Origin: Escherichia phage vB_EcoS_Uz-1
Sequence record: OP312987.1
DNA length: 64,000 bases
Reading direction: 5' to 3' (one strand)
Part shown: in pieces, positions 797-53,533 of the stretch
How the letters are laid out: each line of letters begins with the position of its first letter
How positions within the stretch are numbered: the stretch's first letter is position 1
The notes under the pieces: generated by a model
Database searches by the model: none
Told to the model about the DNA's origin: nothing
The model's input: the letters and a program-made list of their open reading frames with translations, nothing else
Translations under genes and position numbers: made by a program

Positions 797-1076
797 TGTC
801 TTTCCTTATAGATTGGGGTGTTATCCTCGAAGGATAGGATGTACTTGTCTGTATTGAGATGCCATGGACTGAATCTACCCTGCCAGGACATTGGTGTACC
901 TGGTTCAAGTAGATGTACTTCTGCTTTCTTATTGTGTAAGAAAAGCAATCCTTGTAGTTCATGCAAGGACTGTTCGTCTGGAACCAGGATAAGTATATCA
1001 GCATCTAGGTTAGCTACTTTTTATGGTGGGTGTATTCATCCCAAGGTATTTCTGAATAAATTTTACTGATAACCAT
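793..1076 (-). CDS. paralog-family small protein, frame-shifted in this assembly
   Basis: Hand translation: ATG 1076..1074 gives MVISKIYSEIPWDEYTHHKK then a stop; the adjacent frame continues ...LDADILILVPDEQSLHELQGLLFLHN...YKERQ with the family core motif. The frames join if the T5 run near 1018-1023 gains one base. Not in the ORF track. Confidence 0.4.
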
Positions 1077-1306
1077 TAGATGCTCTCGTCGCTAGATAAA
1101 TATGAGGTAGATGGGTAGAGGGTAATGAGTCTACCGGTTAGAGTAGTTACTACCATAGGTTCTGTAGTGGAGTAGATGTACACAACTATGTGCTCCGGTA
1201 TTTCTACGGAATCTTCTATCTTAATGAATTTGATAGGTTGCCCCAGCATTAAGCAAGTACCAATGAACACTTCTGCTTCTTCGCATTGTTCGTAGTACAT
1301 GGTCAT
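1076..1306 (-). CDS. paralog-family small protein
   Basis: ORF track 76 aa; core EQCEEAEVFIGTCLMLG matches the family motif; N-terminus may lie upstream in another frame. Confidence 0.5.
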   Translation of the reverse strand: MTMYYEQCEEAEVFIGTCLMLGQPIKFIKIEDSVEIPEHIVVYIYSTTEPMVVTTLTGRLITLYPSTSYLSSDESI

Positions 1307-1395
1307 AGGCGTGCTTATTCTAATCCAGTGAGATTTACCTACCCCAGATTAAGGGGACTGGTACTACGATAACTCAAACCATAGAAGCGCATAAC

Positions 1396-1710
1396 TTACT
1401 TCCTTACATAGTAGTAACGGTACTCCTCATCATCATGCCTACAATCCCATTGGTAGTCATCGGATACCATCATGAAAGGTAGAGCGTCTACGCACTTAAA
1501 GTTGGTATATACTGATGGAGGAATGATACATACAACTTTACGGTCATTGCCTGCTAAGAAGAGCTGACCCCTTACTTCATGATAATCCTCTAAGGTAGGA
1601 ACCAAGATTACATGCTGGGGGTTGCTATCTATGACTTCCTCTAAAGTAAAGTCTGTTGTGTACAAGGCTCCCCTTCTAACAAAACTAGGGACGGTCAGTA
1701 TGAATTTCAT
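1396..1710 (-). CDS. paralog-family small protein
   Basis: ORF track 1396..1785; likely start at the internal Met (MKFILTV...); core VILVPTLEDYHEVRGQLFLAGN. Confidence 0.5.
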   Translation of the reverse strand: MKFILTVPSFVRRGALYTTDFTLEEVIDSNPQHVILVPTLEDYHEVRGQLFLAGNDRKVVCIIPPSVYTNFKCVDALPFMMVSDDYQWDCRHDDEEYRYYYVRK

Positions 1711-2074
1711 GGTTGATTTTCCTTCCTTTAGGGATAGGTCTGAAGTAAATGGAAAGTGTTTTATTAAAGAGGTTATGTTCAACAATCATTTCCCAGTCAG
1801 GTACTTTATAGAACCTGACTCCTGGGAAGAACTGTTTGAAGTCTGCATAATCAGTAAGGTCATACACAACTGGTTCAGTAAGTATCACAGTATTGATTTG
1901 CAGGTTTGATAAGAAAAGAGAGCCAACTATCTCGTGGGATTCTTCACAGTCTGGTAGGAAGACTACTTGTTTAGGAGCTAGGAACTTACTTACCATCTCT
2001 GGTTCCCCAGGTAGATAGGGTTCCTGCTTACGAAGTACTCCGGTAATATCAATATCAAAAGCGTAGATGCTCAT
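1685..2074 (-). CDS. paralog-family small protein
   Basis: ORF track 129 aa; core VVFLPDCEESHEIVGSLFLSN clearly related to the 1396, 1076, 793 and 2274 genes. Confidence 0.55.
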   Translation of the reverse strand: MSIYAFDIDITGVLRKQEPYLPGEPEMVSKFLAPKQVVFLPDCEESHEIVGSLFLSNLQINTVILTEPVVYDLTDYADFKQFFPGVRFYKVPDWEMIVEHNLFNKTLSIYFRPIPKGRKINHEIHTDRP

Positions 2075-2273
2075 AATTGCATACCTCCAGAAAAAGAAAT
2101 GGGGTAGAGCCTCTCGACTCTACCCTTACCGTTTTCTATCACGGGTCAGTTCATCACCCTAGATACTTGTGTATCGTTAGCCTACCAGGTAGGAAAGGAG
2201 CCGGGTAACCCTGACTGTAGAAGTTATTAACTCTTTACGAGTACCGCCACTGTCTACTAGGCGGTATGACTAA

Positions 2274-2564
2274 TCACATCGTCACCATCATCCGAACACT
2301 GTCTTTACTTCGTTTGATGGAAACACTATGAGGTAATTTTGTGAAGAACACAAGAGCTGAAAGTCTCTTTTCTAAAGAGTAAGTTTCTCTTGGTTCTAAG
2401 ATCTTAATGCCCGGACGATTCTCTAATAGCATCATCCCAGCTAATTCATGGTAGGAATCTTCATCATGTGTAATGATAATATCATCTGAAAGAATACCAG
2501 CCTTGGTGTGGTCTAGCTCTTTGTATTCATCTTTAGAGTCTAGGACTCTCATATAGATTCTCAA
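2274..2564 (-). CDS. paralog-family small protein
   Basis: ORF track 96 aa; core IIITHDEDSYHELAGMMLLEN. Confidence 0.5.
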   Translation of the reverse strand: MRIYMRVLDSKDEYKELDHTKAGILSDDIIITHDEDSYHELAGMMLLENRPGIKILEPRETYSLEKRLSALVFFTKLPHSVSIKRSKDSVRMMVTM

Positions 2565-2733
2565 AGGTTACTCCTTTTGGGAATAGGGTCATCGGAACAT
2601 TACATACTATTTAGTATCATGAACTTTTTCTATATCATGACTAAAGTGTAACTGTATGGTATGGTTTCTTCAAGGGTAACTCACCCCAAGAAAGAATCTT
2701 CTTTAATAGACATAACTTTGTAGAGAGATAAGT

Positions 2734-3423
2734 ATGAGTGAGCTAACTAAGCAGCAGATTGTTAATGCCCTTCCTGCTAACTTCAAGAACAGTGTAACCC
2801 AGGAGTTGGTGGACACAATTAACAACATTACCCAAGACCAACTGGTTGCTGAAGCATTCCGTGAAAACTTCATCTCTTACTCTGGTGTTATGAAGGAAGG
2901 TAAGTTTAAGACACAGGACTACATGAATGCAGTTCAGTATGTGACTTATAAACACATGGGCTACTCAAATAAGGAAGCCTACTTCAAAACATTCCCTAAC
3001 CGACAAGCAGAACTTGTGGCACGAGGAACCAGTGAAAAAGATATTAGTGCTTATGTATCTGCTTATCACAGAGGTAAGTTAGTTAACCTCATCATGGAAC
3101 AAAGTTTGGTTCCAGTGTGGATTGTTAACCAGGACAATTATCAAAAGGCTATCAACGTTCAGGTTGAACTAATGACCACAGCAGCAAGTGAGAAGGTAAG
3201 ATGTGATGCAGCTAACTCTATCCTTACTCACTTGGCTAAACCAAAAGACCAGGTAACGAATATCAATCTGGACTTGAGAGAGAACTCTGGGTTGACTGAC
3301 CTCAAGGCAACACTTGCTGCATTAGCTGAACAGCAAATTAATGCAATCAATAGTGGAGTACCTACTAAAGAGATTGCTGGTTCTAAACTAGTACGTGCAG
3401 ATGAGGACATTACAGATGTCTGA
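2734..3423 (+). CDS. hypothetical protein, candidate small terminase subunit (by position only)
   Basis: 229-aa ORF immediately upstream of and overlapping the large terminase gene; no motif verified. Confidence 0.5.
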   Translation: MSELTKQQIVNALPANFKNSVTQELVDTINNITQDQLVAEAFRENFISYSGVMKEGKFKTQDYMNAVQYVTYKHMGYSNKEAYFKTFPNRQAELVARGTSEKDISAYVSAYHRGKLVNLIMEQSLVPVWIVNQDNYQKAINVQVELMTTAASEKVRCDAANSILTHLAKPKDQVTNINLDLRENSGLTDLKATLAALAEQQINAINSGVPTKEIAGSKLVRADEDITDV

Positions 3424-5005
3424 GTTAATTAAGCAGGAACTAGATGAATGGTTGGACCAGGTGGATTACTCCTACCTTAATTCATCCAACTATGTTCCTA
3501 GTCAGTTTGCCCTTACCTTTGCCAACTTTATTAAGTTGGTTAATGGCAAGGAAGGTGAATCCAACAAAACACCCCCAGTTCACTTAAAGATGCTGGATAA
3601 GATGATTAGTCCGAACCAGTATGTAGTTAACCTGTGCTTCCGTGGTGCAGGTAAGACTGCTGTGTTCATGGAATACTTTACTTTGTTCCTGGCAGTGTTT
3701 GGTCACTTACCCAGTCTTGGTAAAGTAGAAGGAATGATTTACGTATCCGATTCAATGGATAACGGTGCTAAGTCTGCACGTAAGAATATTGAGTTCCGAT
3801 ATAAGAACAGTGAGTTCCTTCAGCAGTGGATACCTGAAGCTACCTTTACGGATAACCTGTTAGAGTTCCGTAATGCAGAGGGACATAGACTGGGGGTTAA
3901 GTTGTTTGGTGCTAAGACAGGTCTTCGTGGTACGAAGATATATGGTAAACGTCCAACACTCTGTGTACTGGATGACTTGATTAGTGACAGTGATGCAAAC
4001 TCCAAGACAAGCATGGAGGCTATTAAAGATACTGTTTATAAAGGTGTGAACCATGCTCTTGACCCAACCCGTCGTAAAGTAATTTTCAATGGTACTCCCT
4101 TTAATAAGGAAGACATTATCATTGAAGCAGTTGAGTCTGGTGCATGGGATGTCAACGTATGGCCTGTATGTGAGAAGTTCCCTTGTAGCAGAGAAGAGTT
4201 TCAAGGTGCATGGGATGACCGTTTCTCATACGACTACATCAAAGCCCAATATGACATGGCAGTTAAGACAGGTAAGCTGGCTGGCTTCTATCAGGAACTT
4301 ATGCTTCGTATTAGTTCTGAAGATGAGAGACTGGTTCAGGATAGTGAAATTAAATGGTACAGCAGGCAGCAACTATTAAGGATGAAGTCCTGCTACAACT
4401 ATTATATTACAACTGACTTTGCTACTTCGGAGAAACAGACCAGTGACTACAGTGTCATATCAGTTTGGGCTTACAGTTCTAATGGAGATTGGTTCTGGGT
4501 TGATGGTGTGGCTAATCGTCAGCTTATGGATAAAAACTTTGATGACTTATTCCGTCTGGTTCAAGAATACCAACCACAAAACGTTGGGGTCGAGATCACG
4601 GGACAGCAGAATGGGTTTATCTCCCTTCTCCAGAAAGAAATGATTAACCGTAACGTCTTCTTTAACTTTGCATCTTCTGAGGGTGGTAAGCCAGGCATAC
4701 GTCCTGTAACCTCTAAGCTGTCACGATTTAACCTGGTAGTTCCATGGTTCAAAGCTGGTAAGATGTACTTTCCAGAAGAGTTGAGAGATACAACTATTAT
4801 GGGTCTGTTCATGGGCCAGCTTAAACTAGCTACCATTAATGGAATTAAAGGTAAGGATGACTGTATTGATACTATCTCCATGCTGGGTTATCTCAATCCT
4901 TGGAAACCACAAGCAGGCATGACTATGGTGGATAACAAGGGTGATCCGATGTGGGATGACGAAGAAGAAGATAGTGTTAACCCTCTACGTTCATACATTG
5001 TGTGA
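3416..5005 (+). CDS. terL: terminase large subunit
   Basis: About 530 aa with P-loop-like FRGAGKT near the N-terminus, upstream of tail and portal genes in N4-like order. Start chosen at ATG 3416 (GAGG 9 nt upstream, overlaps upstream stop); the ORF track begins at GTG 3395. Confidence 0.8.
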   Translation: MSELIKQELDEWLDQVDYSYLNSSNYVPSQFALTFANFIKLVNGKEGESNKTPPVHLKMLDKMISPNQYVVNLCFRGAGKTAVFMEYFTLFLAVFGHLPSLGKVEGMIYVSDSMDNGAKSARKNIEFRYKNSEFLQQWIPEATFTDNLLEFRNAEGHRLGVKLFGAKTGLRGTKIYGKRPTLCVLDDLISDSDANSKTSMEAIKDTVYKGVNHALDPTRRKVIFNGTPFNKEDIIIEAVESGAWDVNVWPVCEKFPCSREEFQGAWDDRFSYDYIKAQYDMAVKTGKLAGFYQELMLRISSEDERLVQDSEIKWYSRQQLLRMKSCYNYYITTDFATSEKQTSDYSVISVWAYSSNGDWFWVDGVANRQLMDKNFDDLFRLVQEYQPQNVGVEITGQQNGFISLLQKEMINRNVFFNFASSEGGKPGIRPVTSKLSRFNLVVPWFKAGKMYFPEELRDTTIMGLFMGQLKLATINGIKGKDDCIDTISMLGYLNPWKPQAGMTMVDNKGDPMWDDEEEDSVNPLRSYIV

Positions 5006-5011: not shown

Positions 5012-5722
5012 ATGCAAAAATTATCAGAAGTATACCGTGGCTTGGCACTAAGTACCTTGAAGGGTACTGGTGCAATCACGGATGATAGATTAGGTATTGA
5101 ACCAGATAGTAAGCCTGAAATACTGGCAGCTATTAATGAAGGACTGGTTCGACTGCATAGTCGTTTCCCCCTTAGGACTAATAGCTGTATTGTGGAGATG
5201 AAGGAAGGACGTACTGATTATCCTCTTCAATCCAAGTATGCTTACTCCAGGTTTACTAAACCTACTCTTGAGATTCAGTATCCGTATATCATGGATGGGT
5301 TCATGAAGCCTTTCCAGGATGATGTTATTAAAATCTTAAATGTGTTTGATAACTCAGGTAACCGACGTAGATTGAACGATGATTCAGACCCCCGTGCTAT
5401 CTTCACCCCACGGCCTGATACTATTCAGTGTATGCGACCTCGACACTTCGAAGCACTTAACGTAACTTATCAGGCAAAGCACCCAGTACTTACGGGTGAT
5501 GAAGAACAGGAAGTTGATTTAGCTGATACGCTAATGACGGCACTTCATAACTGGGTGGGTTATCGTTACCACACTGGTTTGAATACCCCAGAAGCTAATG
5601 CTAAAGCAGCAGAGTATCTGCAAACGTATGAAAGCATCTGTGGTGAGGTTGTTGATTACGACCTGGCTAATGGAAGTATTTCAATTACCGAAACTAAATT
5701 TGAACAACGAGGATGGCGATGA
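5012..5722 (+). CDS. hypothetical virion protein
   Basis: 236-aa ORF with GAGGA upstream of ATG 5012, inside the late structural block. Confidence 0.6.
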   Translation: MQKLSEVYRGLALSTLKGTGAITDDRLGIEPDSKPEILAAINEGLVRLHSRFPLRTNSCIVEMKEGRTDYPLQSKYAYSRFTKPTLEIQYPYIMDGFMKPFQDDVIKILNVFDNSGNRRRLNDDSDPRAIFTPRPDTIQCMRPRHFEALNVTYQAKHPVLTGDEEQEVDLADTLMTALHNWVGYRYHTGLNTPEANAKAAEYLQTYESICGEVVDYDLANGSISITETKFEQRGWR

Positions 5723-7515
5723 ACTCACATACCCCCTTTGATGCAAATCAGGATTGGACCAATCCTTACTGTCATAACAGTTCCAATGACCCTATGGTAG
5801 ATGCACTGCTTGGTAATGCTTACCATGTGGTACGTACTGTCTACTGTAATTTAGGTAACCTCAAACTCATTTATGATTTCTTGAATAAATATGGAATGGT
5901 GCTTGGTGTACAGTCTGAAGCAGAACTTAAAGCATTAACTACTAAAGCTAAGTATGCACGTATCTACGGCTTCTCTCGTACAGGTGACCGTCAGGTAACT
6001 GACTACTTATACGTAGAGGGTGACCGTACAGGTATTTTACCCGATGACACTACTGCAACCGGTTCATGGATTACTGTTGCTACTTCTGGCTCTACTGGTG
6101 GTGGTGGTACTTCTTCCAGTGAAGGTGCTTATATTCCTTGGGTATACAGCAATGGTTCCGCTACTGGTGGTGAAACCACAATTAACGTACCTGACGGTAC
6201 TGTGGGTGTACCTTTTATCATTATTAATGGTGACATGCAGTATGTAGGGCGAGGCTTTGAGTTTAACGCAGATAACCTGTCCGTAACTCTGGCTCAGCCT
6301 CTGGAAGAGGGTGATGAAGTAGTATTCCTTCTGACTGGGGTTCCTGCTGTACCAGATAATCCTAACGTTAACGACTGGGTTCAGATTAATTGGTTATACA
6401 ACAATGGTGCTGCTGTAGGAGGTGAGCAGGTTATTGCTATCCCTTATACCTTCCAGTCTATTCCTGCCGTGTATAAGAATGGACTTCGTTTGTATAAAGG
6501 ATTAACTACTGAGTCCTATACTGCTGACCCGGATAGCCAACGTATACTTCTTACTGAACCACTGACAACCAATGACCGGTTGATTGTGCAAATTGGTGGG
6601 GAAGCACAGGTACTGGAAGCATCAGACCATACTCTTCAGGAAGTTGCTCGTGCTGCTAATGTTAAAGATAGTGAAGTAATCCTTAGTACTGATACTTCTC
6701 AGATACTTAATGGTAAAAAGGTAATTTTTGATGTAGCTACCCAACACTGCTATGCCTTACCTACTTTGCCCAGTAATGTTTATATTACGTCTGTTAATGA
6801 AGGTCAGTTAACATTTTCCCCGGGTAATATAACAGTTGATTTGTTACCACTGGTTGACTCAAAGGAAAACATTGTTGCTGTGGTTAAGGATATCTATTCA
6901 CAGTCAACTGGTTCGGTATCCGTTGGGCATGGTTCAAGAACTGTTGCTGACAATCTAGATGATATCAAGCATTCAGCTAACTACCCTGATTTACAAGCTG
7001 CAATTGACGCTACAAATCCACGTGATGATCTGCTCATTACAGCAGGTACATACCCAGGTGGGTATACTTCAGGTAATGCAAACCTAATCGGTGTAGGTTA
7101 TGGTGTCAATTTTACCCCGGGTATTGGTAAAACTTCTCTTACACTTTCCGAGTCTTCTCGTTTATGGCAATACCGCCATGCGGAAAACTTTCTAATAACT
7201 GGGTCAGTAGATGTACCACAGGGCATCGGCATTACTTTTGGTGGTTCGCCTACACCGAACCTGGATGGGCGTTGGAATTTTAAACACATTGCATTTGACG
7301 GGCTTGACATTGGTGTATTTAAACCTAAAGGGAATATTGGTAATACATACCAACACTGCAGCTATTTAGGGTGTAATTACGGGCATAAAACTGAGTCAGA
7401 TCCAAATATGCACGTGGGGCTGATACATGGAGGGATTGCCATTTTGCAGGCATCAATACTTATGGTATTTACCTTAACGGTTCTGTTGGTGGCCCTGCTC
7501 CAGGTGGTGGTCTAG
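5713..7515 (+). CDS. tail fiber / tailspike-like protein (N-terminal part)
   Basis: 600-aa ORF, Gly/Thr/Ser-rich with an internal tandem repeat of an NG..GGE module; the last ~25 residues are hydrophobic and look out of frame. Confidence 0.65.
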   Translation: MAMNSHTPFDANQDWTNPYCHNSSNDPMVDALLGNAYHVVRTVYCNLGNLKLIYDFLNKYGMVLGVQSEAELKALTTKAKYARIYGFSRTGDRQVTDYLYVEGDRTGILPDDTTATGSWITVATSGSTGGGGTSSSEGAYIPWVYSNGSATGGETTINVPDGTVGVPFIIINGDMQYVGRGFEFNADNLSVTLAQPLEEGDEVVFLLTGVPAVPDNPNVNDWVQINWLYNNGAAVGGEQVIAIPYTFQSIPAVYKNGLRLYKGLTTESYTADPDSQRILLTEPLTTNDRLIVQIGGEAQVLEASDHTLQEVARAANVKDSEVILSTDTSQILNGKKVIFDVATQHCYALPTLPSNVYITSVNEGQLTFSPGNITVDLLPLVDSKENIVAVVKDIYSQSTGSVSVGHGSRTVADNLDDIKHSANYPDLQAAIDATNPRDDLLITAGTYPGGYTSGNANLIGVGYGVNFTPGIGKTSLTLSESSRLWQYRHAENFLITGSVDVPQGIGITFGGSPTPNLDGRWNFKHIAFDGLDIGVFKPKGNIGNTYQHCSYLGCNYGHKTESDPNMHVGLIHGGIAILQASILMVFTLTVLLVALLQVVV

Positions 7516-7520
7516 ATGGA

Positions 7521-8435
7521 TTGGCAATTCGTGATTGCATCATGGAGGCAAGCCCAGGTGGTGGCATTTATTTTAAAGGCAATGGATTAGCTCCTGTAGT
7601 ACCACCTACCATCAGCAATGTATGGTTCGAATTGGTAGCCACTGCAGACACAGTAACTGTTGACGGAGTTCCGCAAGCACCTAGACAGTTGAAACTAGAA
7701 AACGTTCCGGTAACTGTTGCAGAGGGATGCTATTTTAACAATATTGAGTTAATAAACTCTACTCTAGTGGCGAAAAACTGCAGGTTTGATAATGCGTCCG
7801 GTGTGTATGACATTAATGTCAATTCCGGTAGTCAAATCATTGCACATGACCTGATTGTTGGTGGCTCTGTTGGGCCAAAGGTTTTTGTAGAATCTGTATC
7901 GGATGTGTCATTCCCTGTTGCTAATAGTCTGGATTTATCCTTAAGAGGAACCTGTCTGAAAGGACGAATTAAGAGGCTTTCCAATGGTCAGGCAATGCTA
8001 TCTGAATCTTTCGCTGGTGCAGGTCCATGGCAGTTCCTGGGTACTTCTACTGTTGATGCAACTTCCGTAACGGATGGTGTATTGTCAGACACTTGCGGTC
8101 AAATAGTAGTACCAGCAGGAGCTACAGTAATGCTAAATGTACCCGCTAGTTTGGCTCAGTACTACACCCTAGTTTGGGGAGCAAGCCTGAAATTGGTATC
8201 CGGCGATGTAACAGCAACTCTATCGGATAGTATTAATATAGGTAGCTTGTATACCAGTACTGGTGAATGGGTGCACACCTTTGGGGTTGGGCAGTTAGGT
8301 ACTGCTGGTACAGTTAAACTAACCTTTTCCTCCGTGGCAGGTTGCGTTTTACGTATGAGTGATGTGTTTGTTGCTCAGTTTGCTAACAAGTATGATGCAT
8401 ATAATTTTGCTAACTCTCGTATGTCTATTGGCTAA
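7521..8435 (+). CDS. tail fiber / tailspike-like protein (probable C-terminal continuation of 5713 gene)
   Basis: ORF track start is TTG with no SD; this frame is open back to 7395 and reads protein-like sequence (GINTYGIYLNGSVGGPAPGGG...). Confidence 0.5.
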   Translation: MAIRDCIMEASPGGGIYFKGNGLAPVVPPTISNVWFELVATADTVTVDGVPQAPRQLKLENVPVTVAEGCYFNNIELINSTLVAKNCRFDNASGVYDINVNSGSQIIAHDLIVGGSVGPKVFVESVSDVSFPVANSLDLSLRGTCLKGRIKRLSNGQAMLSESFAGAGPWQFLGTSTVDATSVTDGVLSDTCGQIVVPAGATVMLNVPASLAQYYTLVWGASLKLVSGDVTATLSDSINIGSLYTSTGEWVHTFGVGQLGTAGTVKLTFSSVAGCVLRMSDVFVAQFANKYDAYNFANSRMSIG

Positions 8436-8483
8436 ACAGACTGCCTTCGGGGCAGTTCCTTATAGAAAAACAATGAGGTTTAT

Positions 8484-10598
8484 ATGAACGAAATGTTCTC
8501 ACAAGGCGGTAAAGGCTCTACTGGTATTCTTACCAATAAGCAAGCCATTGCCCGTAAGTTTGGTGTTAAGCAGAATGAAGTAGTCTATTTTTCTGTAGGT
8601 GTAGACTTGGGTGGATACAAAGTCATTTATGATAAGACTACTCAACGCGCTTACTCATTGCCCGTACTTCCAGTAGGAACCACTGCTGTAAGTCTTAGTG
8701 AACATGCAGTCTTGGTTCATTCGGCAGGTACAGTTGATTTGGGTGAACTGGCTGCTGCACGTAGAGAGTTTGTATGCTTATCTGATTCATTTACTACGGG
8801 CTTAGTAGTAAATACTCGAAATGAGCTTTTGATGCATAATGGTATTGGTTATACCTACTTAGGTTCTCTACCCGTAACTATTGTTGAAGGGGCCAACCCT
8901 GTTGGCAACACGGATTGGAAGTCCCAAACGGATCCTAATTTGCGTGCTCAGTTGGCATCTCAGGATGGTATGACTTTAATTGGTAGTGTACCCGACGTAA
9001 CTGCCCTGGCTTCTGTTGGAGCAACAGTAGGGTCTAGTATAATGCTAGATTCGTACTCAGGCTCTTCCGTTGGTGGGGGTATTATGATTGCGGTTCCTAA
9101 TACTACTCCTGTAGATGAAGTTGTAACTTTCACCGGTGCAGGAGTGGTCTGGAAGCGTAAGTTCTTTGATGGCACTGCTACGGTATACGATGCAGGTTAT
9201 ACTGGTACGGGGGATATTGCCCCATTCATTAACAAGGTAAACTCTGCCGGTTACGATTGTCTTGTACCTACATCAGGGACTATTAGTACACCTATCTTAC
9301 TGGATGTAGCTAAGGGGGCTTTAGTAGGAGCCAATAAGTGTACCCTTACGGAAATGGAAGGTGTAACAGGAGAGTATTATTTAACCGTAATCAATTCTAA
9401 TACAGATTACACAGCCCGTGATGCCATTAATGCTACTGCCCTATTAACAGGTATTTCCTTTGTAGGTAAAGGTACTCGAAAGATGTGCTTGGGCAGTAGT
9501 ACTGGAGGGGAGATAGCAGAATTACGTATATCTAACTGCGGGTTTATATCTACCGCAGGTATTGAGTTTAAAGATAATGCATACCGTATCCTGTTTGATA
9601 AGTGCACCATTTCTCGCAGTTTTACTAACTCTGTAATCTTTAATTCCCCGGTTAATGCTGGTGAGGTTATAAAATTCAACCACTGCTGGATGGTTGATAA
9701 TGGGGGTCCATTTACATTTGAGAATGGGCAGTTCATCTTTGATTCATGCTCATTACCAGCAGGTAAAAAGGCAGGCTACTTCGATCCAGTAGTGGCATTA
9801 AGTGATAATGCTACCTTAGTATTTGCTAACGGTAATATTGAGTATCAACCCGGGCAGAGTTTTGTAGGCTTTACTGTGAGTGGAAGCTCACGCCTCAGTA
9901 TTAAAGATTCTACTATTCTGCTTCCAGAAGGCTACAGTACAGTGCCTATTGTTAGTAATGGTGATGGGGTAGTTAGTTTAAATAACTGCTCATTGCCCCT
10001 CTACGGTAACACAACGATTGCTACTGGATTTGCTACAAGACAGTTGATAGGCGGTGCAAGTAAAAAAGTAATGTCCAGAGGGTGCTTCCCTCGTGCAGGA
10101 TTTATTACAACTAACTGGAATCTAGGGAGCATTGTAAGCCCATATATTAATAGTATTAGCAATGGCTCAGGACAGTTTGGAAATACATCTAACTGGACAC
10201 TCTCGCAAACTGGAACAGGTGCTGTCACTGCTACTACAGCAAATGATGTTCCTAACGATTTAATGTTTACAACTTCTTTTGTTTTATCTGTACCATCAGC
10301 AGATGCAGCAGCTAACTTCACTCAAACAATCATTGATTGTGAACCGGGTCGTTATTTTCAGTTTGGTTTTTGGGCTAAAAATACAACAACCACCTTGGCG
10401 TCAATTAGATTCCTGGACCAGCAAGGAAATGCTGTTGCGGATTCCATAGGATATATCATTCCAGTAGTAAACACGTTCAACTTTTACGCTTTGGTGGATT
10501 GCGTTCCTCCAGGAGCTTACAAAGCTGAAATTAATTTTAATGTTTCTTCAGTTGTTGGAGGCGTCGTAATACACAATGCAGTTTATGGATTGATTTAA
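8484..10598 (+). CDS. tailspike / receptor-binding-like protein
   Basis: 704-aa ORF, ATG 8484 with GAGG upstream; N-terminal ~45 aa share a motif (..TQ..Y.LP.LP) with an internal segment of the 5713 gene; beta-rich, Gly/Thr/Asn-rich. Confidence 0.7.
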   Translation: MNEMFSQGGKGSTGILTNKQAIARKFGVKQNEVVYFSVGVDLGGYKVIYDKTTQRAYSLPVLPVGTTAVSLSEHAVLVHSAGTVDLGELAAARREFVCLSDSFTTGLVVNTRNELLMHNGIGYTYLGSLPVTIVEGANPVGNTDWKSQTDPNLRAQLASQDGMTLIGSVPDVTALASVGATVGSSIMLDSYSGSSVGGGIMIAVPNTTPVDEVVTFTGAGVVWKRKFFDGTATVYDAGYTGTGDIAPFINKVNSAGYDCLVPTSGTISTPILLDVAKGALVGANKCTLTEMEGVTGEYYLTVINSNTDYTARDAINATALLTGISFVGKGTRKMCLGSSTGGEIAELRISNCGFISTAGIEFKDNAYRILFDKCTISRSFTNSVIFNSPVNAGEVIKFNHCWMVDNGGPFTFENGQFIFDSCSLPAGKKAGYFDPVVALSDNATLVFANGNIEYQPGQSFVGFTVSGSSRLSIKDSTILLPEGYSTVPIVSNGDGVVSLNNCSLPLYGNTTIATGFATRQLIGGASKKVMSRGCFPRAGFITTNWNLGSIVSPYINSISNGSGQFGNTSNWTLSQTGTGAVTATTANDVPNDLMFTTSFVLSVPSADAAANFTQTIIDCEPGRYFQFGFWAKNTTTTLASIRFLDQQGNAVADSIGYIIPVVNTFNFYALVDCVPPGAYKAEINFNVSSVVGGVVIHNAVYGLI

Positions 10599-10603
10599 TT
10601 AAA

Positions 10604-10628
10604 ACTAAGGCCCAAACTGGGCCTTTTC
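10604..10628. terminator. bidirectional intrinsic terminator between convergent genes
   Basis: Hairpin GGCCCAAACTGGGCC with T-rich flanks on both strands, between the stop of 8484..10598 (+) and the stop of 10629..11282 (-). Confidence 0.6.
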
Positions 10629-11282
10629 TTATATAGAGTTTACTGTTTGCATTACCTCAACCGATACTGCTGTTAGGGTAATTACTTGCCCGGATAAGTT
10701 AAACATACCCAACTGAATACCATCTACCATGAAAGGGTCAGATGAACCAAGTGTGTAAGTAGCTAGTACGTTATCCCTATTAGCTATGTCCGTACCCTGT
10801 ACCTTAACACTAGTGTCTGAACCAACTACTGTAGTTCCATTGGTTCGTCTTGTTTGTGTTCTCCATTCTCTTGCTGTACCAGCACCTCCTGTAATAGTTC
10901 CTGATATACGTACACTGAACATTACCTGGGTATTCCTGGTTCTAATAGGGAATTTAAGATTACCTCCTTCAATTGTTAATGCTGCTGTACCCCCAGGTGA
11001 TTTAGTTATCCATGGTAATGAAAAGTAATTGAGCCAGGACTGGTCATTTACTACCTGGCTCCCGGTCCATGTATACAAGTCCAGAAGGAAAGTATCTTCT
11101 AACTCTGTTGGTGGGATGGGTAGTAGTTCAGGGGGAAGCTCTGAAACGTTATTAGCAGAAACTATTCGTTCCCCATAGCTTCCCACGACCAACAAACCAC
11201 CCTTCATTTTGCACACAACATCCTTACCACTTTGGAAAATATCTTTAATAGACATAGATACCTCGTAGTTGATACCAGACAC
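10629..11282 (-). CDS. hypothetical protein encoded opposite to the late operon
   Basis: 217-aa minus-strand ORF inside the plus-strand late module, bounded by the bidirectional terminator and a ~100 bp AT-rich upstream region. Confidence 0.6.
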   Translation of the reverse strand: MSGINYEVSMSIKDIFQSGKDVVCKMKGGLLVVGSYGERIVSANNVSELPPELLPIPPTELEDTFLLDLYTWTGSQVVNDQSWLNYFSLPWITKSPGGTAALTIEGGNLKFPIRTRNTQVMFSVRISGTITGGAGTAREWRTQTRRTNGTTVVGSDTSVKVQGTDIANRDNVLATYTLGSSDPFMVDGIQLGMFNLSGQVITLTAVSVEVMQTVNSI

Positions 11283-11379
11283 TATGTCTGGATGTACTCC
11301 ATCATACTAAGTATTATCTAAGAGTCATCTTATGATACGACCCTATTGGGGTTTCTAACTTTACAACTACGGTAATATT

Positions 11380-11709
11380 ATGAATGAATCGGGTGAACTG
11401 CTCCTAGTCAGACTGGAGGAACGATTGAAGACTCTGTTTGAGAACCATACAAGGGAAAGGCAGGACCGTGAGAAACTGGAGGAAACTCTGGTGGAACTAC
11501 GGGATTCAATCAATGACATAGGCAATAGACTGAAAAATGTGGAAGAGAGCATCACTAAGTCTGAACCCACCATTGAAGAGTTCATCACCATTAAACATAA
11601 GGTTGCTGGTGCTGGGATTTTTGGTAAGTGGGTATGGGCTGGAGCAGGTGCAATTATTGGTGTATTGGCTGCTGCAAGACGGGAGATATTCGCATGGTTC
11701 GCAGGCTAA
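11380..11709 (+). CDS. membrane protein with coiled-coil N-terminus and C-terminal TM anchor (holin/antiholin candidate)
   Basis: 109 aa; charged coiled-coil-like N-terminal half, C-terminal hydrophobic stretch GIFGKWVWAGAGAIIGVLAAA; sits at the head of the lysis cassette. Confidence 0.5.
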   Translation: MNESGELLLVRLEERLKTLFENHTRERQDREKLEETLVELRDSINDIGNRLKNVEESITKSEPTIEEFITIKHKVAGAGIFGKWVWAGAGAIIGVLAAARREIFAWFAG

Positions 11710-19779: not shown

Positions 19780-20916
19780 ATGGGCTTATTCAGTGGGAAG
19801 ACCAAAGTATACGTAGCATCCTCTGTCTATAACATGGCAGGGGATATACATAAGCGTCCAAACTATATGAAGACTGTAGTCATCGGTAAGATTGTTGCTG
19901 ATACAGGATTCACTATGGCAGATACTATCTCTGATAGTTATCTGAATGGACCGGGTATTCGTATGCGACTGTTCTCCAGCTGGAGTAAGAACCACTATGA
20001 CTCAGAAGTTGGTATGGCAGGAGCTTCATTAGGTGTGCTGGCAAAGATTGACCCTACTGTTATAGAGGGTCAAATTACCCCACCTGCTGGAGAATCAGTC
20101 TATGTTCAGGCAGCAGAGATTGGCTTTGCTGACTTTGAGCAATGGTGTGACCAGTATCTTTATGAGAATGCTCCAAGTCGAATCATGGAACGATTCGACA
20201 TAGACATTGATGAAGATACCAATGAAATTACTATGACCTCCCTTGATGGAGGTTCTACCATTACATTCACACCTACTAACTTTGAACCAGGTGCTTTATA
20301 TCTCTATGCTGATTACTCATTCTATAAGTCCCCGGCTACCAATCCACCGGTAGTAGGACCGACTACTGTCTATGATGATGAAGATGACTTACCGTCTACT
20401 TTGTTGTGGACTACCATCTCAAGTGATACGACAGCTAATACAACCAATCTTACTAAGACTATACAGACCCATTCTGTTTACTCTGATGGTAGGCCGGATG
20501 AAGACAGTACTGTTACTGAACCAAGTGTGGATAACTGGAACTCTTATGTTAAGGTTTACCGTAGAGGATTCACTGAAAAGCCTGATGACGTAACTGTAGT
20601 TGTATCTGACAGAGTAATGACTCATACAAAGTTTGGTGAGGTTCAATCCAGTACTACTGTAACTACCAATGTTGTTAATTTAGGTGGTGGTGTTACTCGC
20701 ACTGACACAATCACCACAACTACAGAGACACTGGTTCGTAAGTACTCATCCCAGACTACTCGTACTGATACTGAGATGACTGCTGTTGGTACACCTAAGA
20801 TGCTTATCTATAAGCAGAACTCTGGCAACGTTGCACTTGATTCCCTGTTTGAGACTGAAGCTACTGATAATCGATTCTACCATTTATTCCAATCAGGAAT
20901 GATAAACAATGGGTAG
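19780..20916 (+). CDS. hypothetical virion protein
   Basis: 378-aa ORF, Thr-rich C-terminal half; the next ORF frame is open across its 3' end. Confidence 0.6.
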   Translation: MGLFSGKTKVYVASSVYNMAGDIHKRPNYMKTVVIGKIVADTGFTMADTISDSYLNGPGIRMRLFSSWSKNHYDSEVGMAGASLGVLAKIDPTVIEGQITPPAGESVYVQAAEIGFADFEQWCDQYLYENAPSRIMERFDIDIDEDTNEITMTSLDGGSTITFTPTNFEPGALYLYADYSFYKSPATNPPVVGPTTVYDDEDDLPSTLLWTTISSDTTANTTNLTKTIQTHSVYSDGRPDEDSTVTEPSVDNWNSYVKVYRRGFTEKPDDVTVVVSDRVMTHTKFGEVQSSTTVTTNVVNLGGGVTRTDTITTTTETLVRKYSSQTTRTDTEMTAVGTPKMLIYKQNSGNVALDSLFETEATDNRFYHLFQSGMINNG

Positions 20917-20987
20917 AGAATGACCCAATCTATCCTCACTGTAAGAAGGCACTCTATAAAGCTACTGGTGGTAAGCTCAATAAAGTA

Positions 20988-22433
20988 GTGACGGAGCTTA
21001 AGAAGAATGACGACATAGGTGATATTCAATACATCTATGGTACATTTGGTGTATCTCTTAATACTCCAGAAGATACGGCTAAGGAATACATCTACCGTTT
21101 CTTTCAGATGGCTACTGAAGCATTCCCACCTGACCCAACTTACCCTACATTGGAAGCAGTGATTGCAGGTTATCAGGCAGCAAATGATGCAGTCGATGCA
21201 TACGTAGAATGGTGGAACAGGCAGGAAGGTCAGATTGTTGGAACACCTCCATCTCTTCCAGAATACCCTGTTATACCTAAGCGAGAGTTTAGGATACATA
21301 GTAATAAGCAGTATAAGTACGACATGACCATTGGTTGGAACTACGTGTCTGAAACTACCCATTCCGGTGAAGCATGGGCTGGTGCTAAGCAAGGACAACT
21401 TCGAGCCAGATATGCAGGAGATATAACTCTTACCCGTAAGAACATACGTACTGCTAGTACCTACTGCTATGCTAACAAACTAGAAGTTACCACTACGTTT
21501 TATTCTATGCAGGAATACGAGTTACTTTGGCAGGATGGTAATGACACTTACCGTAAACTTAGAGTACTGGGTCTAAATCACAACAATAGGGTATATAAGA
21601 ATAAATCAGTAAGTATTGATGTTGCCGAAGCAATGGGAGATGCAGAGGAGAGTGGGTTCATTATCCCACTACACACTAATATTTACCGTTCAATGTCACT
21701 GGTTCGTAGTACACAACTGTCTACTGCCTGTTCCTACTTAGTGATGAACTCATACAAGAAAGTTAAGCAGAAATGGTATCAAACCTCTGCTTTTAAGATT
21801 GTGGTCGTTGTAGTTGCTGTCGTTGTATCTGTATTCACTATGGGTACGGGTGGTGCAGGTATACTTGGGGCATATGGTGCAGTTGGTGCATCTCTGGGTT
21901 TTGTTGGATTAGCTGCTGTAATAGTTGGTGCTGTAGCAAACGCCATAGCTGCAATGATTCTGGTATCCATTATTACTAAAGTATCTACTTCACTGTTCGG
22001 TGATAAGCTAGGTTTTATCATTGCTGCTATTGCCTCAATGGTAGCCATGAACGTTGGTACTGCTTTGTCTACTGGTACATCCTTATCCTCCCTAGCTGGT
22101 GAAATGATGAATGCTCAAAACATCATGCAACTTACCAGTTCGGTAGGTAATGGTATTAGTCAGTATATTAATGCATCCACGGCTGCTACTATTCAGAAAG
22201 CAGAGAATGTAATGCAGCAGTACAATACTGATATGATGGCAATCAATAAGCAGTATGAAGAAATGTTTGGTACTGCTGGGCAGGGTGTAATTGACCCTAT
22301 GCAATTTGTGTCAATGGAGTCGTTGGATTCTTTCCTCTCACGTACTCTTATGACTGGTTCGGATATAGCTGACATGTCTTTAAACATGGTTGGCAGCTAC
22401 TCTGATATGACTCTTAATACAGACCTTGTTTAA
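20988..22433 (+). CDS. virion protein with Gly/Ala-rich multi-TM segment
   Basis: 481 aa; ORF track start is GTG and the frame is open upstream to 20871 with no ATG; central ~110 aa hydrophobic Gly/Ala/Val-rich region. Confidence 0.55.
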   Translation: MTELKKNDDIGDIQYIYGTFGVSLNTPEDTAKEYIYRFFQMATEAFPPDPTYPTLEAVIAGYQAANDAVDAYVEWWNRQEGQIVGTPPSLPEYPVIPKREFRIHSNKQYKYDMTIGWNYVSETTHSGEAWAGAKQGQLRARYAGDITLTRKNIRTASTYCYANKLEVTTTFYSMQEYELLWQDGNDTYRKLRVLGLNHNNRVYKNKSVSIDVAEAMGDAEESGFIIPLHTNIYRSMSLVRSTQLSTACSYLVMNSYKKVKQKWYQTSAFKIVVVVVAVVVSVFTMGTGGAGILGAYGAVGASLGFVGLAAVIVGAVANAIAAMILVSIITKVSTSLFGDKLGFIIAAIASMVAMNVGTALSTGTSLSSLAGEMMNAQNIMQLTSSVGNGISQYINASTAATIQKAENVMQQYNTDMMAINKQYEEMFGTAGQGVIDPMQFVSMESLDSFLSRTLMTGSDIADMSLNMVGSYSDMTLNTDLV

Positions 22434-22902: not shown

Positions 22903-23769
22903 ATGGCTCAGATAACCTGGCGTAATGTTGATGCACCTAACTTCTCTGGAGTTGGTGACAGCATTCGCACATTTGGCAACATGATTGGTAACGCCACCTC
23001 CGGCTTAAGTGATGCACTGGGTAATTTCCAGAACGCTGCCAAGCAGGAGGCTGGTAATGCCGTCATGATGAATGCTATGCAGTACCAAGACCCAACTGAG
23101 TATCGTAATGCATTAGCATCTGGTGCACTGTTTCAGGGGGTTGACCCTTCATTGGTAAACCAGCGTACTCTCCAGAATCTGGATGAGCGAGCAGGTACTC
23201 TTCTGTCTCAGCAAGGTCAGCAGGGGATCAATGACTACAATGCTTATCGTTTTGGTCGTTTACAGAATACTGACTCTGCATTAGATAATGCTTCCCCAGC
23301 TATTCGTTTACTGTCTGAGGCTTATCAGTCTGGTGACCAGAATCGTATTAATGCTGCATTAGGTCAGACCCGTGAGGCATTATCTGCATTACCTGCTGAC
23401 CAACAACTGGATATGTTGAGTCGTCTACAAGGACAAGGTGGTCAGGCTATTAACCAAGCACAGAATCGTTTTGATTTGGGTGTGGCTCAACGTAATGATG
23501 CGGATAGTCAGGCAGCTATGGGTGTAATGTCACAGATTACCCGTGGTTCTGAGAACCTAATGATGCTCGTTTGTTGGCAGAGGCGTATAGTAAAAACCTG
23601 TCCCCTGTTGCACAGGCACGTTTACAGGAAATGCTTGCTCGTGCATACCGGTGTTTATGGTAATAATGTTGGTGCTACGTCTGCTCCGGGTACTGCTGGT
23701 ACTCGTCAGGGTTCCCCTTATGATGTTACTTACCAATTTGCTGGTACATCTACCCTATTACTCAAATGA
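22903..23769 (+). CDS. hypothetical virion protein
   Basis: 288-aa ORF with AGGAAA SD; Gln/Asn/Ala-rich; the 3' part has an alternative protein-like frame between 23570 and 23660. Confidence 0.55.
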   Translation: MAQITWRNVDAPNFSGVGDSIRTFGNMIGNATSGLSDALGNFQNAAKQEAGNAVMMNAMQYQDPTEYRNALASGALFQGVDPSLVNQRTLQNLDERAGTLLSQQGQQGINDYNAYRFGRLQNTDSALDNASPAIRLLSEAYQSGDQNRINAALGQTREALSALPADQQLDMLSRLQGQGGQAINQAQNRFDLGVAQRNDADSQAAMGVMSQITRGSENLMMLVCWQRRIVKTCPLLHRHVYRKCLLVHTGVYGNNVGATSAPGTAGTRQGSPYDVTYQFAGTSTLLLK

Positions 23770-24029
23770 GTATTGGTGATGTAATTAAACACCAGGATGG
23801 TATGAAGACGAACCAAGGTGCTTCACCTGTTGGTGCATTCCAAATTAACCAAGCTACTCTGAAAGACTTCGCTCCTAAAGTTCTTGGTTCAGATTGGCAA
23901 AGCCAGCCTCTTTCTCCTGAGAACCAGGATAAGATTGGTAAGGCTATCTTTGAGGCCCGTAAGAATGGCAACCTTAAAGATACCTGGGCTGCACTTCCTA
24001 ACTCTACCCAGGTGCTTATAAGGATATGA
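23766..24029 (+). CDS. hypothetical protein
   Basis: 87-aa ORF, ATGA start-stop overlap with neighbours on both sides. Confidence 0.45.
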   Translation: MSIGDVIKHQDGMKTNQGASPVGAFQINQATLKDFAPKVLGSDWQSQPLSPENQDKIGKAIFEARKNGNLKDTWAALPNSTQVLIRI

Positions 24030-24862
24030 CTTGGGAACAGATTAAACCTGTTATTGCTCAAGCCGAGGTGGGAGCTGACCCACTCGCTATGGTTCAGAAT
24101 AATCAAGGTAATCAGGCAGTATCTACTCTGGCTCAGGGTATGATTGGTACACGTTCTATGCAGGATAACACCGGTAGTCTTAACACTGACTTCCTTGGTA
24201 CTGTCACTGATAATACCCCAGTAGGTGAGATTGCTAACCGTTTGTTGGAAGGTGACTTTAAAGGTGCTGACCGTAACTGGGTACTGAACCGACTGAATGA
24301 TATTTCTCAACGTGGGAATATGTCACCAGCTATGGCTGCTGCTGTTATGCAACGTGCACAGACCGGTGTTCCAGAAGGTTATATTAGTCGTGCTATTGAT
24401 GCAGTTAACCCATTCATTACCAATGAAGCTGGTAATGGTATGCGTCTTAATGACCGTCTGGTAGATCAGTTAATTGAGGGTGTACAACGTGGTGAACCAC
24501 TGGAAGGTAGTGTGCGTAATCTTGGACGTGCTCAAGCTATGCAGAATATTCAGGCAGCACAGACTGCTTATGATGCTGCTGTAGCTGCACTGACAAATAC
24601 CCAGAACAAGATTAACACTGGACAAACTGGACTTACTGCACTGTTACCTGCACGTCAGGAAGCTGTTACTAAAGCTGCTGCAATGCTTCAAGCTGCCCAA
24701 GCTCAAGTACAGGCTGACCCAGCTAACCTGGCTCCAAGAGGTTTTCAGTCTCAGGCTAGTGTGGACAGGGCACGAGCCAAGGAAGATGAAGAACGTGCTG
24801 CACGATACTTACGTCAGGCACAAGGTTTGCCTGAGTATATGCAACCAAGACAAAATCGGTAA
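24026..24862 (+). CDS. hypothetical virion protein
   Basis: 278-aa ORF, ATGA overlap with upstream gene, followed by a strong terminator. Confidence 0.55.
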   Translation: MTWEQIKPVIAQAEVGADPLAMVQNNQGNQAVSTLAQGMIGTRSMQDNTGSLNTDFLGTVTDNTPVGEIANRLLEGDFKGADRNWVLNRLNDISQRGNMSPAMAAAVMQRAQTGVPEGYISRAIDAVNPFITNEAGNGMRLNDRLVDQLIEGVQRGEPLEGSVRNLGRAQAMQNIQAAQTAYDAAVAALTNTQNKINTGQTGLTALLPARQEAVTKAAAMLQAAQAQVQADPANLAPRGFQSQASVDRARAKEDEERAARYLRQAQGLPEYMQPRQNR

Positions 24863-43586: not shown

Positions 43587-43903
43587 GAACCCGTCTTCGA
43601 TGATATTACTGAGTGACCTTTACCGAAACCAGATGTAGCCAACGCTATAGCGTAGATGTTTACCGGCAGGTCACCACGGTCTTTAGTTACGATGGTTGCA
43701 CCCATGCAGGATGCCATTTTAGCCAAGAAGTAGGCTACTTCGACACGGAAGAATCCCCGGTCATTGTTCTGGGTTTTATTGCAGAGCACATCTACGATTT
43801 CTTCAATCGCTGGATGGTGCACTACTCCGGTAAGGTCAATACTCATGATGGAAAATATCTCTCTCTTTGTTTGCAAATGGTCGCGACAGGGCAGTATAAA
43901 CAA
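43583..43903 (-). CDS. small hypothetical protein, possibly the N-terminal segment of the primase gene
   Basis: 106-aa ORF ending ATSGFGKGHS..., ATGA overlap with the primase ORF. Confidence 0.4.
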   Translation of the reverse strand: MFILPCRDHLQTKREIFSIMSIDLTGVVHHPAIEEIVDVLCNKTQNNDRGFFRVEVAYFLAKMASCMGATIVTKDRGDLPVNIYAIALATSGFGKGHSVISSKTGS

Positions 43904-44823
43904 CGCTTAACCTGCCCCTCCACGACCTTGATAGCACCCTTGCCACCTTTTTCAGCCATGAAGATACGGGCAGATGCCATATCGTCAAAGTTTTTGGTAC
44001 TTCTGGCTCCAGGCACATCTACCTTAGAAGCATCAGAGAAGTATTTGAATTGTGGCTCTGTTCGCCACAACTCCTCGTCAGTACATTCAGGAATTTCCTC
44101 TTCAGGAGCATCCCAGTACTTTTCGATGAGGTGAATCTTCTCTTCCACCCAACGTTCAGTCTTCTCGACAGATAGCAGCGGAATATCCTTATGCATAATA
44201 CGATTAGCAGGATAGTTCGGGTTGCTATTAGCCATGTGTTTCATGAAGTCAGTGAAGATGTAGTTAATACGGATTACATCCTCCGTAATGATGTCGTTAT
44301 GAATCCAACGGTACAAGCTGCCTTGCATCTTGTGTTCATCATCACGGGAACCGGCAACCCAGGAATAGGTTGAGGTAGACTTAAAGTCTTGCAACAGACC
44401 TTCCGTTACGATGTCGAACTTACCACCGATAGTCCAACCCTTAACTACCCTGGTTCCACGTTGTTCAATGTAGATTGGGATAAGGTCTGGGTTAGCATCA
44501 AAGTCTGCTTTGGTTGGGTTAATGACTACTGCATCAATGACTCGCTGAGGATAGCCTAGTTTCTTCAATGCAGTCTTATGCCCCAGCTTCCAGGCTTTCT
44601 CAATAGAATCATGCAAGCCAGTACCCATTGATGTGGAGACGAAATCCATAACATCAATGGATTGTTCACTGAGATCTACGCGATGCTTCATGACGATTTG
44701 CTTAATGGGTTTAAGCAATGTAGTAGCAGACAAGTACTTAGGATTGTCTACATAATCATACTCGTCATGTAATAGCCATACAGCTAGTGCAAGACTAACG
44801 TCGTGTTTGTTGGTAAGTTTCAT
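43843..44823 (-). CDS. PD-(D/E)XK nuclease, Cas4-like exonuclease with C-terminal Cys cluster
   Basis: GKFDIVTEG...QDFK nuclease-like motifs and C-terminal C-x2-C-x5-C (KRCLYCPVATICK); 326 aa. Confidence 0.5.
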   Translation of the reverse strand: MKLTNKHDVSLALAVWLLHDEYDYVDNPKYLSATTLLKPIKQIVMKHRVDLSEQSIDVMDFVSTSMGTGLHDSIEKAWKLGHKTALKKLGYPQRVIDAVVINPTKADFDANPDLIPIYIEQRGTRVVKGWTIGGKFDIVTEGLLQDFKSTSTYSWVAGSRDDEHKMQGSLYRWIHNDIITEDVIRINYIFTDFMKHMANSNPNYPANRIMHKDIPLLSVEKTERWVEEKIHLIEKYWDAPEEEIPECTDEELWRTEPQFKYFSDASKVDVPGARSTKNFDDMASARIFMAEKGGKGAIKVVEGQVKRCLYCPVATICKQRERYFPS

Positions 44824-45317: not shown

Positions 45318-45324
45318 AATTAGT

Positions 45325-46661: not shown

Positions 46662-46669
46662 ATCACTAA

Positions 46670-53529: not shown

Positions 53530-53533
53530 CAGA

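Follow-up and report, generated by a model that had tools for sequence, protein, structure and literature searches.

In G7C-like phages the N-terminus of the tailspike is conserved and the C-terminus is swapped, and a conserved stem-loop separates the two tailspike genes (bioRxiv 10.1101/542787). The names XD2 and XD3, for the domains that dock the second spike, are taken from PMC8825819. We analysed 64,000 nts of Escherichia phage vB_EcoS_Uz-1 (record OP312987.1), hereafter the window. It includes a tailspike gene in the same slot as the G7C-like one (G7C gp66 per PMC8825819), 3' of an adaptor gene (N4 gp68-like) and 5' of a second tailspike gene. The window gene shares the G7C-like pattern of a conserved N-terminus and a swapped C-terminus, but it carries another allele of the C-terminal receptor-binding domain, G7C gp66 being compared here through a published summary. 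As deposited, the gene is split into two ORFs because one G is absent from a G run.

Gene layout and annotation

The features of the locus are listed below, with coordinates in the window. PD38 is a phage of the species Gamaleyavirus Bp4 with the same neighbouring genes as the window.

5012-5722: ORF of the adaptor gene (SU10_adaptor match)
5713-7419, + strand: 5' part of the tailspike gene in the correct frame, residues 1-569 from ATG 5713 (homology; the phrog_27367 match ends at residue 569)
7416-7419, + strand: GGGG run with one G missing, the site of the frame break (comparison with PD38; one added G opens a 907-codon frame)
7420-7515, + strand: out-of-frame read-through into the artificial hydrophobic tail LIHGGIAILQASILMVFTLTVLLVALLQVVV, ended by a false stop (translation)
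7419-7520, + strand: true -1-frame coding sequence missed by the annotation, reading ADTWRDCHFAGINTYGIYLNGSVGGPAPGGGLDG (translation; invariant residues in homologues)
7521-8435, + strand: 3' part of the tailspike gene, encoding what remains of the receptor-binding domain and the C-terminus (phrog_27367 positions 433-735; uninterrupted homologues)
8441-8457, + strand: terminator-like hairpin after the gene, ACTGCC TTCG GGGCAGT, one C fewer than in PD38
8484-10598: ORF of the second tailspike gene (annotated tail spike)

The upstream ORF, 5713-7515, has 600 aa and ends in a hydrophobic tail of 31 residues (...HVGLIHGGIAILQASILMVFTLTVLLVALLQVVV*). Amongst the PHROG profiles, no family match reaches into this 0-frame tail past residue 569. 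The downstream ORF, 7521-8435, lies in the -1 frame relative to the upstream one; it has 304 aa and is annotated separately as orf12 with start codon TTG. Downstream of the stop at 7392-7394, this TTG is the first ATG, GTG or TTG of its frame, and reading by eye we find no AGGAGG-like Shine-Dalgarno sequence at usable spacing upstream of it. The frame is open back to 7395, where it reads VRSKYARGADTWRDCHFAGINTYGIYLNGSVGGPAPGGGLDGLAIRDC..., and from that position on it encodes conserved tailspike sequence. The G-rich sites are GGGG at 7416-7419 and GGAGGG at 7429-7434. The hydrophobic end, the TTG without a Shine-Dalgarno and the frame open to 7395 had all been described in an earlier, sequence-only reading of this DNA, and translation and sequence reading bear them out.

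As for the start of the gene, ATG 5719-5721 (+ strand) overlaps the stop codon of the upstream adaptor gene (5720-5722) as ATGA, with AGGA at 5710-5713, and both the PD38 annotation and the four Logan gene calls use the equivalent ATG (MN[SA]HTPF...). ATG 5719 is more likely to be the true start codon than ATG 5713. At the other end of the gene, the hairpin of PD38 has a perfect stem of 7 bp and a TTCG loop (ACTGCCC TTCG GGGCAGT).

Tailspike identity and domains

By its sequence matches, we identify the protein as the particle-attached branched tailspike of a Gamaleyavirus (G7C-like, N4-related) coliphage. Homology assigns residues 1 to about 383 to the virion anchor and the T4 gp10-like branching domains, after which the receptor-binding domain follows. 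Residues 1-383 match residues 1-383 of the Moo19 chain 9d80_D (E 1.4e-155) and also the B2 Gp49 chain 9d83_D, and the N-terminal anchor region matches phrog_12242 (tail protein) with 1044-1058 bits. In the N-terminal ~383 aa, identity is 85% to the St11Ph5 tail protein and 61% to Moo19. The T4 gp10-like XD2/XD3 branching domains are found by sequence matches. Residues 102-211 match residues 228-335 of 7rej_A/7rfo_A (a 341-aa 'Tailspike protein'), and 6w4q_A is also matched. Residues 141-383 have matches in tailspikes of Ackermannviridae and Przondovirus phages (as annotated), and share ~40% identity with the tailspikes of ~150-kb Salmonella, Escherichia and Shigella phages.

Other Gamaleyaviruses are similar at the DNA level up to about nucleotide 1000-1130 of the gene. 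Unrelated coliphages such as LM33_P1 and Golestan share the C-terminal receptor-binding domain, and N4 does not. Proteins of LM33_P1 (Kayfunavirus), Golestan (Kagunavirus), XT34 (Drexlerviridae) and myPSH1131 (Kuravirus) are 39-65% identical over the whole 491-aa C-terminal region, collinear and unbroken, but they have their own phage-type N-terminal anchors, unlike the one in the window. The label 'N4-like tail protein' of the sequence-only reading is right in the broad sense of a Gamaleyavirus (G7C-like) tailspike, with a receptor-binding domain that is not shared with N4.

A right-handed parallel beta-helix fold is plausible for the C-terminal part. The Pfam Beta_helix model (PF13229) stays below its gathering threshold, with 20.7 and 18.2 bits vs a cut-off of 25.9, and a profile search with the C-terminal 491 aa finds no PDB relatives at E up to 1. 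A single-sequence AlphaFold2 model of the PD38 protein has a mean pLDDT of 35. From homology, residues 1 to about 383 would attach the trimer to the tail, with their gp10-like domains serving as the dock for the second spike (ORF 8484-10598), and the C-terminal part, probably a beta-helix, would bind and possibly cleave surface polysaccharide.

Continuity of the protein

The junction-spanning segment is uninterrupted in about 40 phage records of other families, as found by tblastn with the 491-aa C-terminal junction-spanning region as the query (40 records covered at least 80% of it). Among the records listed, all but two Bp4 entries span the junction in one piece; Bp4 needs two. Four Logan assemblies encode proteins of 904-906 aa that read ...MHVGADTWRDCHF... 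across the junction. Invariant residues flank the junction on both sides, M150, H151 and G153 before it and D155, T156, H161 and F162 after it. Homologues in four other phage groups all keep residues D155, T156, H161, F162, G164, I165, Y168 and Y171 of the -1-frame stretch 7419-7520.

The PHROG 27367 profile connects the two ORFs. Its positions 127-400 match the upstream ORF in an alignment that ends at residue 569, the shift site, and its positions 433-735 match the downstream ORF; the PD38 protein gives one continuous match to positions 127-735 (E 1.4e-138). Judged by these matches, the division of PHROG 27367 between two ORFs is not a chance pattern. The predicted products differ in their peptides. 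The fused protein, with a predicted ~97 kDa, would have the junction tryptic peptide TESDPNMHVGADTWR, and the tryptic peptide DCHFAGINTYGIYLNGSVGGPAPGGGLDGLAIR is encoded 5' of the annotated TTG. The 600-aa product, with a predicted 64 kDa, would have the C-terminal peptide …ILQASILMVFTLTVLLVALLQVVV, ending ...LLQVVV.

Comparison with PD38 and Bp4

The PD38 and Bp4 genomes have 3 mismatches over 72 kb. In PD38 the run is GGGGG and there is a single CDS (tail fiber protein AXY81356.1, 905 aa), whereas the window and Bp4 have GGGG at 7416-7419 and two annotated CDSs. The extra G is the sole DNA difference between PD38 and the window within the gene from 5902 on, and the remaining differences lie before 5902. 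When one G is restored at 7416-7419, the window encodes 907 aa from ATG 5713 or 905 aa from ATG 5719, and the repaired product is the PD38 protein but for 4 N-terminal substitutions. A single uninterrupted ORF of about 900-1100 codons is absent from the window as written (600 + 304 aa), and is present after one added G, in PD38 and in the four Logan assemblies. We attribute the lack of a single ORF in the window to sequence error, and not to the gene.

The sequence-only reading had proposed one tail protein of ~900 aa, reached by a frame change near either GGGG or GGAGGG, and had preferred indel error over programmed frameshifting. The single CDS of PD38, the four assemblies and the ~40 unbroken records all agree with one such protein. 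As to the site, GGGG at 7416-7419 stands, given the GGGGG of PD38, and GGAGGG at 7429-7434 is ruled out because the sequence there is identical in PD38. The preference for indel error is upheld by the genome-wide comparison of Bp4 with PD38, in which 41 bases are missing in Bp4 and 0 are extra.

Of these 41 missing bases, 40 sit in homopolymer runs with lengths of 2-8 bases. Bp4 has breaks in the DNA polymerase, primase, rIIA, gp53, gp51 and gp24, all of which PD38 has in one piece. Homopolymers are under-called in flow-based sequencing (454 / Ion Torrent type), and the missing bases of Bp4, one-directional and in homopolymers, resemble errors of that type, a likeness in error pattern only. 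The locus has the marks of a homopolymer indel artefact: a homopolymer site, a near-identical genome that is one base longer and has the gene intact, and genome-wide one-directional homopolymer indels that break essential genes.

The vB_EcoS_Uz-1 record is 72583 bp long, the same as the Bp4 record, and over 64 kb there are 3822 substitutions and 0 indels between the window and Bp4. The third-codon-position phase of these substitutions moves by one at each Bp4 missing-base site tested (DNA polymerase, gp53 and gp51), and therefore selection acted on intact genes. This codon-phase test is inapplicable at 7416-7419, because the window is identical to Bp4 at 5902-11543.

Explanations for the split

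We consider it highly probable that the split is an artefact, in which the Bp4 reference record is one G short of the GGGGG run through under-calling, and the vB_EcoS_Uz-1 record inherited the gap. With one G missing from a G run, sequencing or assembly error, and not biology, is almost certainly responsible. Since the vB_EcoS_Uz-1 record has the exact length of Bp4 and substitutions only, it would have taken over the missing base, most probably by reference-guided assembly on Bp4. We infer that base-calling or assembly, as opposed to a real mutation in the phage stock, removed the base, and that Bp4 served as the reference for the window. The true gene would be one ~2.72-kb ORF from ATG 5713 or 5719 to the stop at 8435, with 905-907 aa. 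A point against this reading is the note for orf11 in the Bp4 annotation, the available part of which carries the wording 'confirmed ...'.

The one-base deletion could instead be real in the stock. G runs are natural slippage hot spots, and the truncated Bp4 tailspike would lose the distal receptor-binding domain but keep the anchor and branching domains, with infection via the second spike (ORF 8484-10598). The truncated product retains residues 1-383, the holder of the second spike by homology (PMC8825819), so that some hosts could still support such a phage. However, the Bp4 record lacks 40 other bases, all in one direction and nearly all in homopolymers, and its breaks include the DNA polymerase and the primase, which a viable phage needs. 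PD38 is intact at only 3 substitutions from Bp4, and counting the four Logan assemblies there are five independent assemblies with the gene intact. A real deletion is thus disfavoured, and we regard it as unlikely. It is more doubtful still that the Bp4/Uz-1 stock truly has the GGGG allele and uses the G run as a slippage-prone switch, where most particles would have a truncated spike still holding the second tailspike and rare -1 slippage, by the ribosome or the replicating polymerase, would restore the full-length receptor-binding domain. If true, this would lead to a phase-variable host range.

Programmed -1 ribosomal frameshifting on G_GGG at 7416-7419 would make a short 600-aa and a long 907-aa product. 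The tRNA-Gly on GGG 7417-7419 can re-pair perfectly with GGG 7416-7418, and the long product would then equal the PD38 protein. However, an X_XXY_YYZ heptamer is lacking; with the codons CAC GTG GGG CTG, the sequence C_GTG_GGG_C allows a single-tRNA slip only. The downstream 81 nts (7420-7500) fold no better than shuffles (MFE -18.6 kcal/mol vs a shuffle mean of -18.67, z = 0.02), the 0-frame tail has no family match, and the two-frame layout is absent in PD38 and all homologues, each of which has one continuous frame. With no slippery heptamer, no downstream RNA structure and a split that is not conserved, programmed frameshifting is unsupported, and we give it very little weight. The least credible reading, to which we assign next to no probability, takes the annotation literally as two real separate proteins, orf11 (tail protein) and orf12 (tail fiber protein), as they are listed in the GenBank and RefSeq annotation of Bp4 and also in vB_EcoS_Uz-1. 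Here the second protein (a 32-kDa product starting MAIRDCIME) would begin inside a conserved domain at a TTG without a Shine-Dalgarno, and 34 conserved residues (ADTW...LDG) would be left uncoded. The split is seen in no other genome amongst the tblastn records and Logan assemblies, and a single PHROG profile covers both ORFs.

Consequences for the reference records

The value of the under-called G as an explanation is mainly curatorial, and no open biological question is touched. The RefSeq species-exemplar record of Bp4 (NC_024142.2) and the derived vB_EcoS_Uz-1 record have about 40 one-base deletions, which split the tailspike, DNA polymerase, primase, rIIA and others. Host-range prediction, receptor-binding-protein catalogues and gene-family counts would take from them two false proteins (600 aa and 304 aa) instead of one 905-aa tailspike. 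As a reference, PD38 (MH669274.1) is preferable.

The split tailspike gene

The tailspike locus of the window is annotated as two ORFs, followed by a second spike gene.

Features of the tailspike locus (strand as given)
5713-7515, upstream ORF, 600 aa, product exactly UWJ04303.1 of vB_EcoS_Uz-1
7416-7419, GGGG run
7521-8435, downstream ORF, 304 aa, TTG start
8441-8457, terminator-like hairpin between the two spike genes, one C fewer than PD38
8484-10598, second spike gene

This region matches phage Bp4 (Schitoviridae, Gamaleyavirus; KJ135004.2/NC_024142.2) at identical coordinates, and also PD38 (MH669274.1) of the same species. In the three-way alignment, the run at 7416-7419 is GGGG in the window and in Bp4 and GGGGG in PD38, the sole difference within the tailspike gene from 5902 on. 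Bp4 annotates two entries (orf11 and orf12) and PD38 a single 905-aa CDS (AXY81356.1, labelled "tail fiber protein"). Adding one G to the window opens a frame of 907 codons, whose product is the PD38 protein but for four N-terminal residues in the diverged portion before 5902. The sequence-only reading, which placed a frame change near this run and proposed one tail protein of about 900 aa, is borne out on both points. It was also right that the downstream frame is open back to 7395: from there it translates as VRSKYARGADTWRDCHFAGINTYGIYLNGSVGGPAPGGGLDGLAIRDCIMEASPGGGIYFK..., and the TTG is the earliest candidate start codon following the stop at 7392-7394.

Homologues run through the junction, the point where the frame changes. 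In the 90%-identity cluster of the downstream ORF are the PD38 protein and, from the public Logan assemblies, four proteins of 904-906 aa, all four of which read ...DPNMHVGADTWRDCHFAGINTYGIYLNGS... across it. With a 491-aa junction-spanning tblastn query, 40 phage records cover at least 80% of the query, and it is in one piece in all matches listed but the two Bp4 entries, where it is in two. Four aligned homologues, from XT34 (Drexlerviridae), LM33_P1 (Autographiviridae), Golestan (Guernseyvirinae) and myPSH1131 (Kuravirus), share invariant residues on either side (M150, H151 and G153 before; D155, T156, H161, F162, G164, I165, Y168 and Y171 after). PHROG 27367 (tail fiber protein) aligns to the PD38 protein without a break over profile positions 127-735; it matches the upstream ORF over 127-400, ending at residue 569, the shift site, and the downstream ORF over 433-735. 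This continuity indicates that the hydrophobic end of the upstream ORF (...NMHVGLIHGGIAILQASILMVFTLTVLLVALLQVVV*), already remarked on in the sequence-only reading, is conserved coding sequence translated out of frame.

The gene probably begins two codons downstream of its annotated start (ATG 5713). The ATG at 5719 overlaps the stop of the adaptor gene (ATGA; stop at 5720-5722), has AGGA (5710-5713) five bases upstream, and is the start in PD38 and in the four Logan gene calls. In myPSH1131 (MG983840.1), a full-length receptor-binding-domain homologue lies at 2501-3985, in a stretch without an annotated gene; that record lists none from locus position 916 to 4218.

Probable homopolymer under-calls in the Bp4 record

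Bp4 and PD38 have 3 mismatches in 72.2 kb, and 41 bases are missing from Bp4 against none from PD38. All but one of the missing bases (40/41) fall within homopolymer runs of 2-8 bases, and 36 are inside the window. Besides the tailspike gene, they split seven further genes in Bp4.

Genes split by missing homopolymer base(s), each a single CDS in PD38 (window coordinates)
19780-22433, gp53-like gene
22903-24862, gp51-like gene
41694-43726, DNA primase
46167-48633, DNA polymerase
53534-56099, rIIA
60062-61234, gp25-like gene
61720-62771, gp24-like ATPase

A viable lytic phage cannot lose its polymerase and primase, so homopolymers are systematically under-called in the Bp4 record. The hairpin after the tailspike gene agrees with this. 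In PD38 (ACTGCCC TTCG GGGCAGT) its 7-bp stem around the TTCG loop is perfect, and the window has ACTGCC TTCG GGGCAGT. In G7C-like phages, a conserved stem-loop here has been proposed to mark a recombination boundary of the tailspike module (bioRxiv 10.1101/542787).

The main alignment spans Bp4 411-72582 and covers all of PD38. Bases 1-410 of Bp4 align in reverse complement to the last 410 bases of PD38; about 410 bp of the Bp4 record are thus present once in PD38, which explains the length difference between the records.

Origin of the Uz-1 sequence

The window is from vB_EcoS_Uz-1. The Uz-1 record is 72583 bp, identical in length to that of Bp4, and all 64000 bases of the window align to Bp4 with 3822 substitutions and zero gaps. 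The substitutions provide an independent check: they are mainly at third codon positions, and the third-position phase moves by exactly one at each of the tested sites where Bp4 has a missing base.

Third-position phase across Bp4 missing-base sites
DNA polymerase: 0, 2, 1 across 46731 and 47108
gp53: 0, 2 across 20879
gp51: 0, 2, 0, 2, 1 across 23555, 23649 (two bases), 23752 and 24006

Genes were therefore intact in the phage in which this divergence arose, and the divergence was placed on Bp4 coordinates. Together with the equal record lengths and the lack of indels, the phase pattern speaks for a consensus built with Bp4 as its guide, from which it took over the indel errors; the GGGG allele in the window is then not an independent observation. 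The phase test is inapplicable at 7416 itself, as there are no substitutions there: 5902-11543, most of the tailspike gene and the next spike gene, has none.

Window stretches identical to Bp4
5902-11543
35698-36318
37465-38250
44774-45610
53267-55679
56116-57142
61200-61722
62503-64000

Elsewhere divergence from Bp4 is about 6%. Among the sequence in these stretches are the entire tailspike module and two genes labelled HNH endonuclease by RefSeq. They may be reference sequence kept where no reads mapped, in which case the tailspikes of the Uz-1 record may not be Uz-1's own; the alternative is natural mosaic recombination.

Explanations for the frame break

We are confident that the two ORFs belong to a single, ordinary tailspike gene and that its break in the record is artefactual, with a G missing at 7416-7419. 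The sequence-only reading holds throughout, also as to the site. A real deletion in the phage stock is improbable, and the remaining readings are jointly less probable still. Programmed frameshifting, which the sequence-only reading already ranked below an indel error, is very improbable. The 0-frame codons CAC GTG GGG CTG contain no X_XXY_YYZ heptamer, and at G_GGG re-pairing is possible for one tRNA only. For the 81 nt that follow, folding is no stronger than in shuffles (z = 0.02), and the two-frame arrangement is kept in none of the relatives compared (PD38, tblastn records, aligned homologues and Logan proteins). Both records, Bp4 and Uz-1, should be corrected, and PD38 is the reference to use instead.

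Identity of the tailspike

For the C-terminal domain, whose fold and activity we infer, there is a sub-threshold Pfam Beta_helix match; sequence search finds no PDB relative, and structure prediction without an alignment is unusable (pLDDT 35). The first 383 residues match chain 9d80_D, the Moo19 "tail fiber protein" (E 1.4e-155), and B2 Gp49 chain 9d83_D, with 61-86% identity to proteins of ZQ2, St11Ph5, PhAPEC7 and Moo19. Within them, residues 141-383 match tailspikes of phages annotated Ackermannviridae and Przondovirus primary receptor-binding proteins. The domains matched are the T4 gp10-like XD2/XD3, by which G7C gp66 holds its second spike gp63.1 (PMC8825819). The gene lies after an SU10-adaptor-like gene and before the second spike gene. 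DNA similarity to other Gamaleyaviruses ends about 1.0-1.1 kb into it, which fits the C-terminal module swapping described in G7C-like phages (bioRxiv 10.1101/542787).
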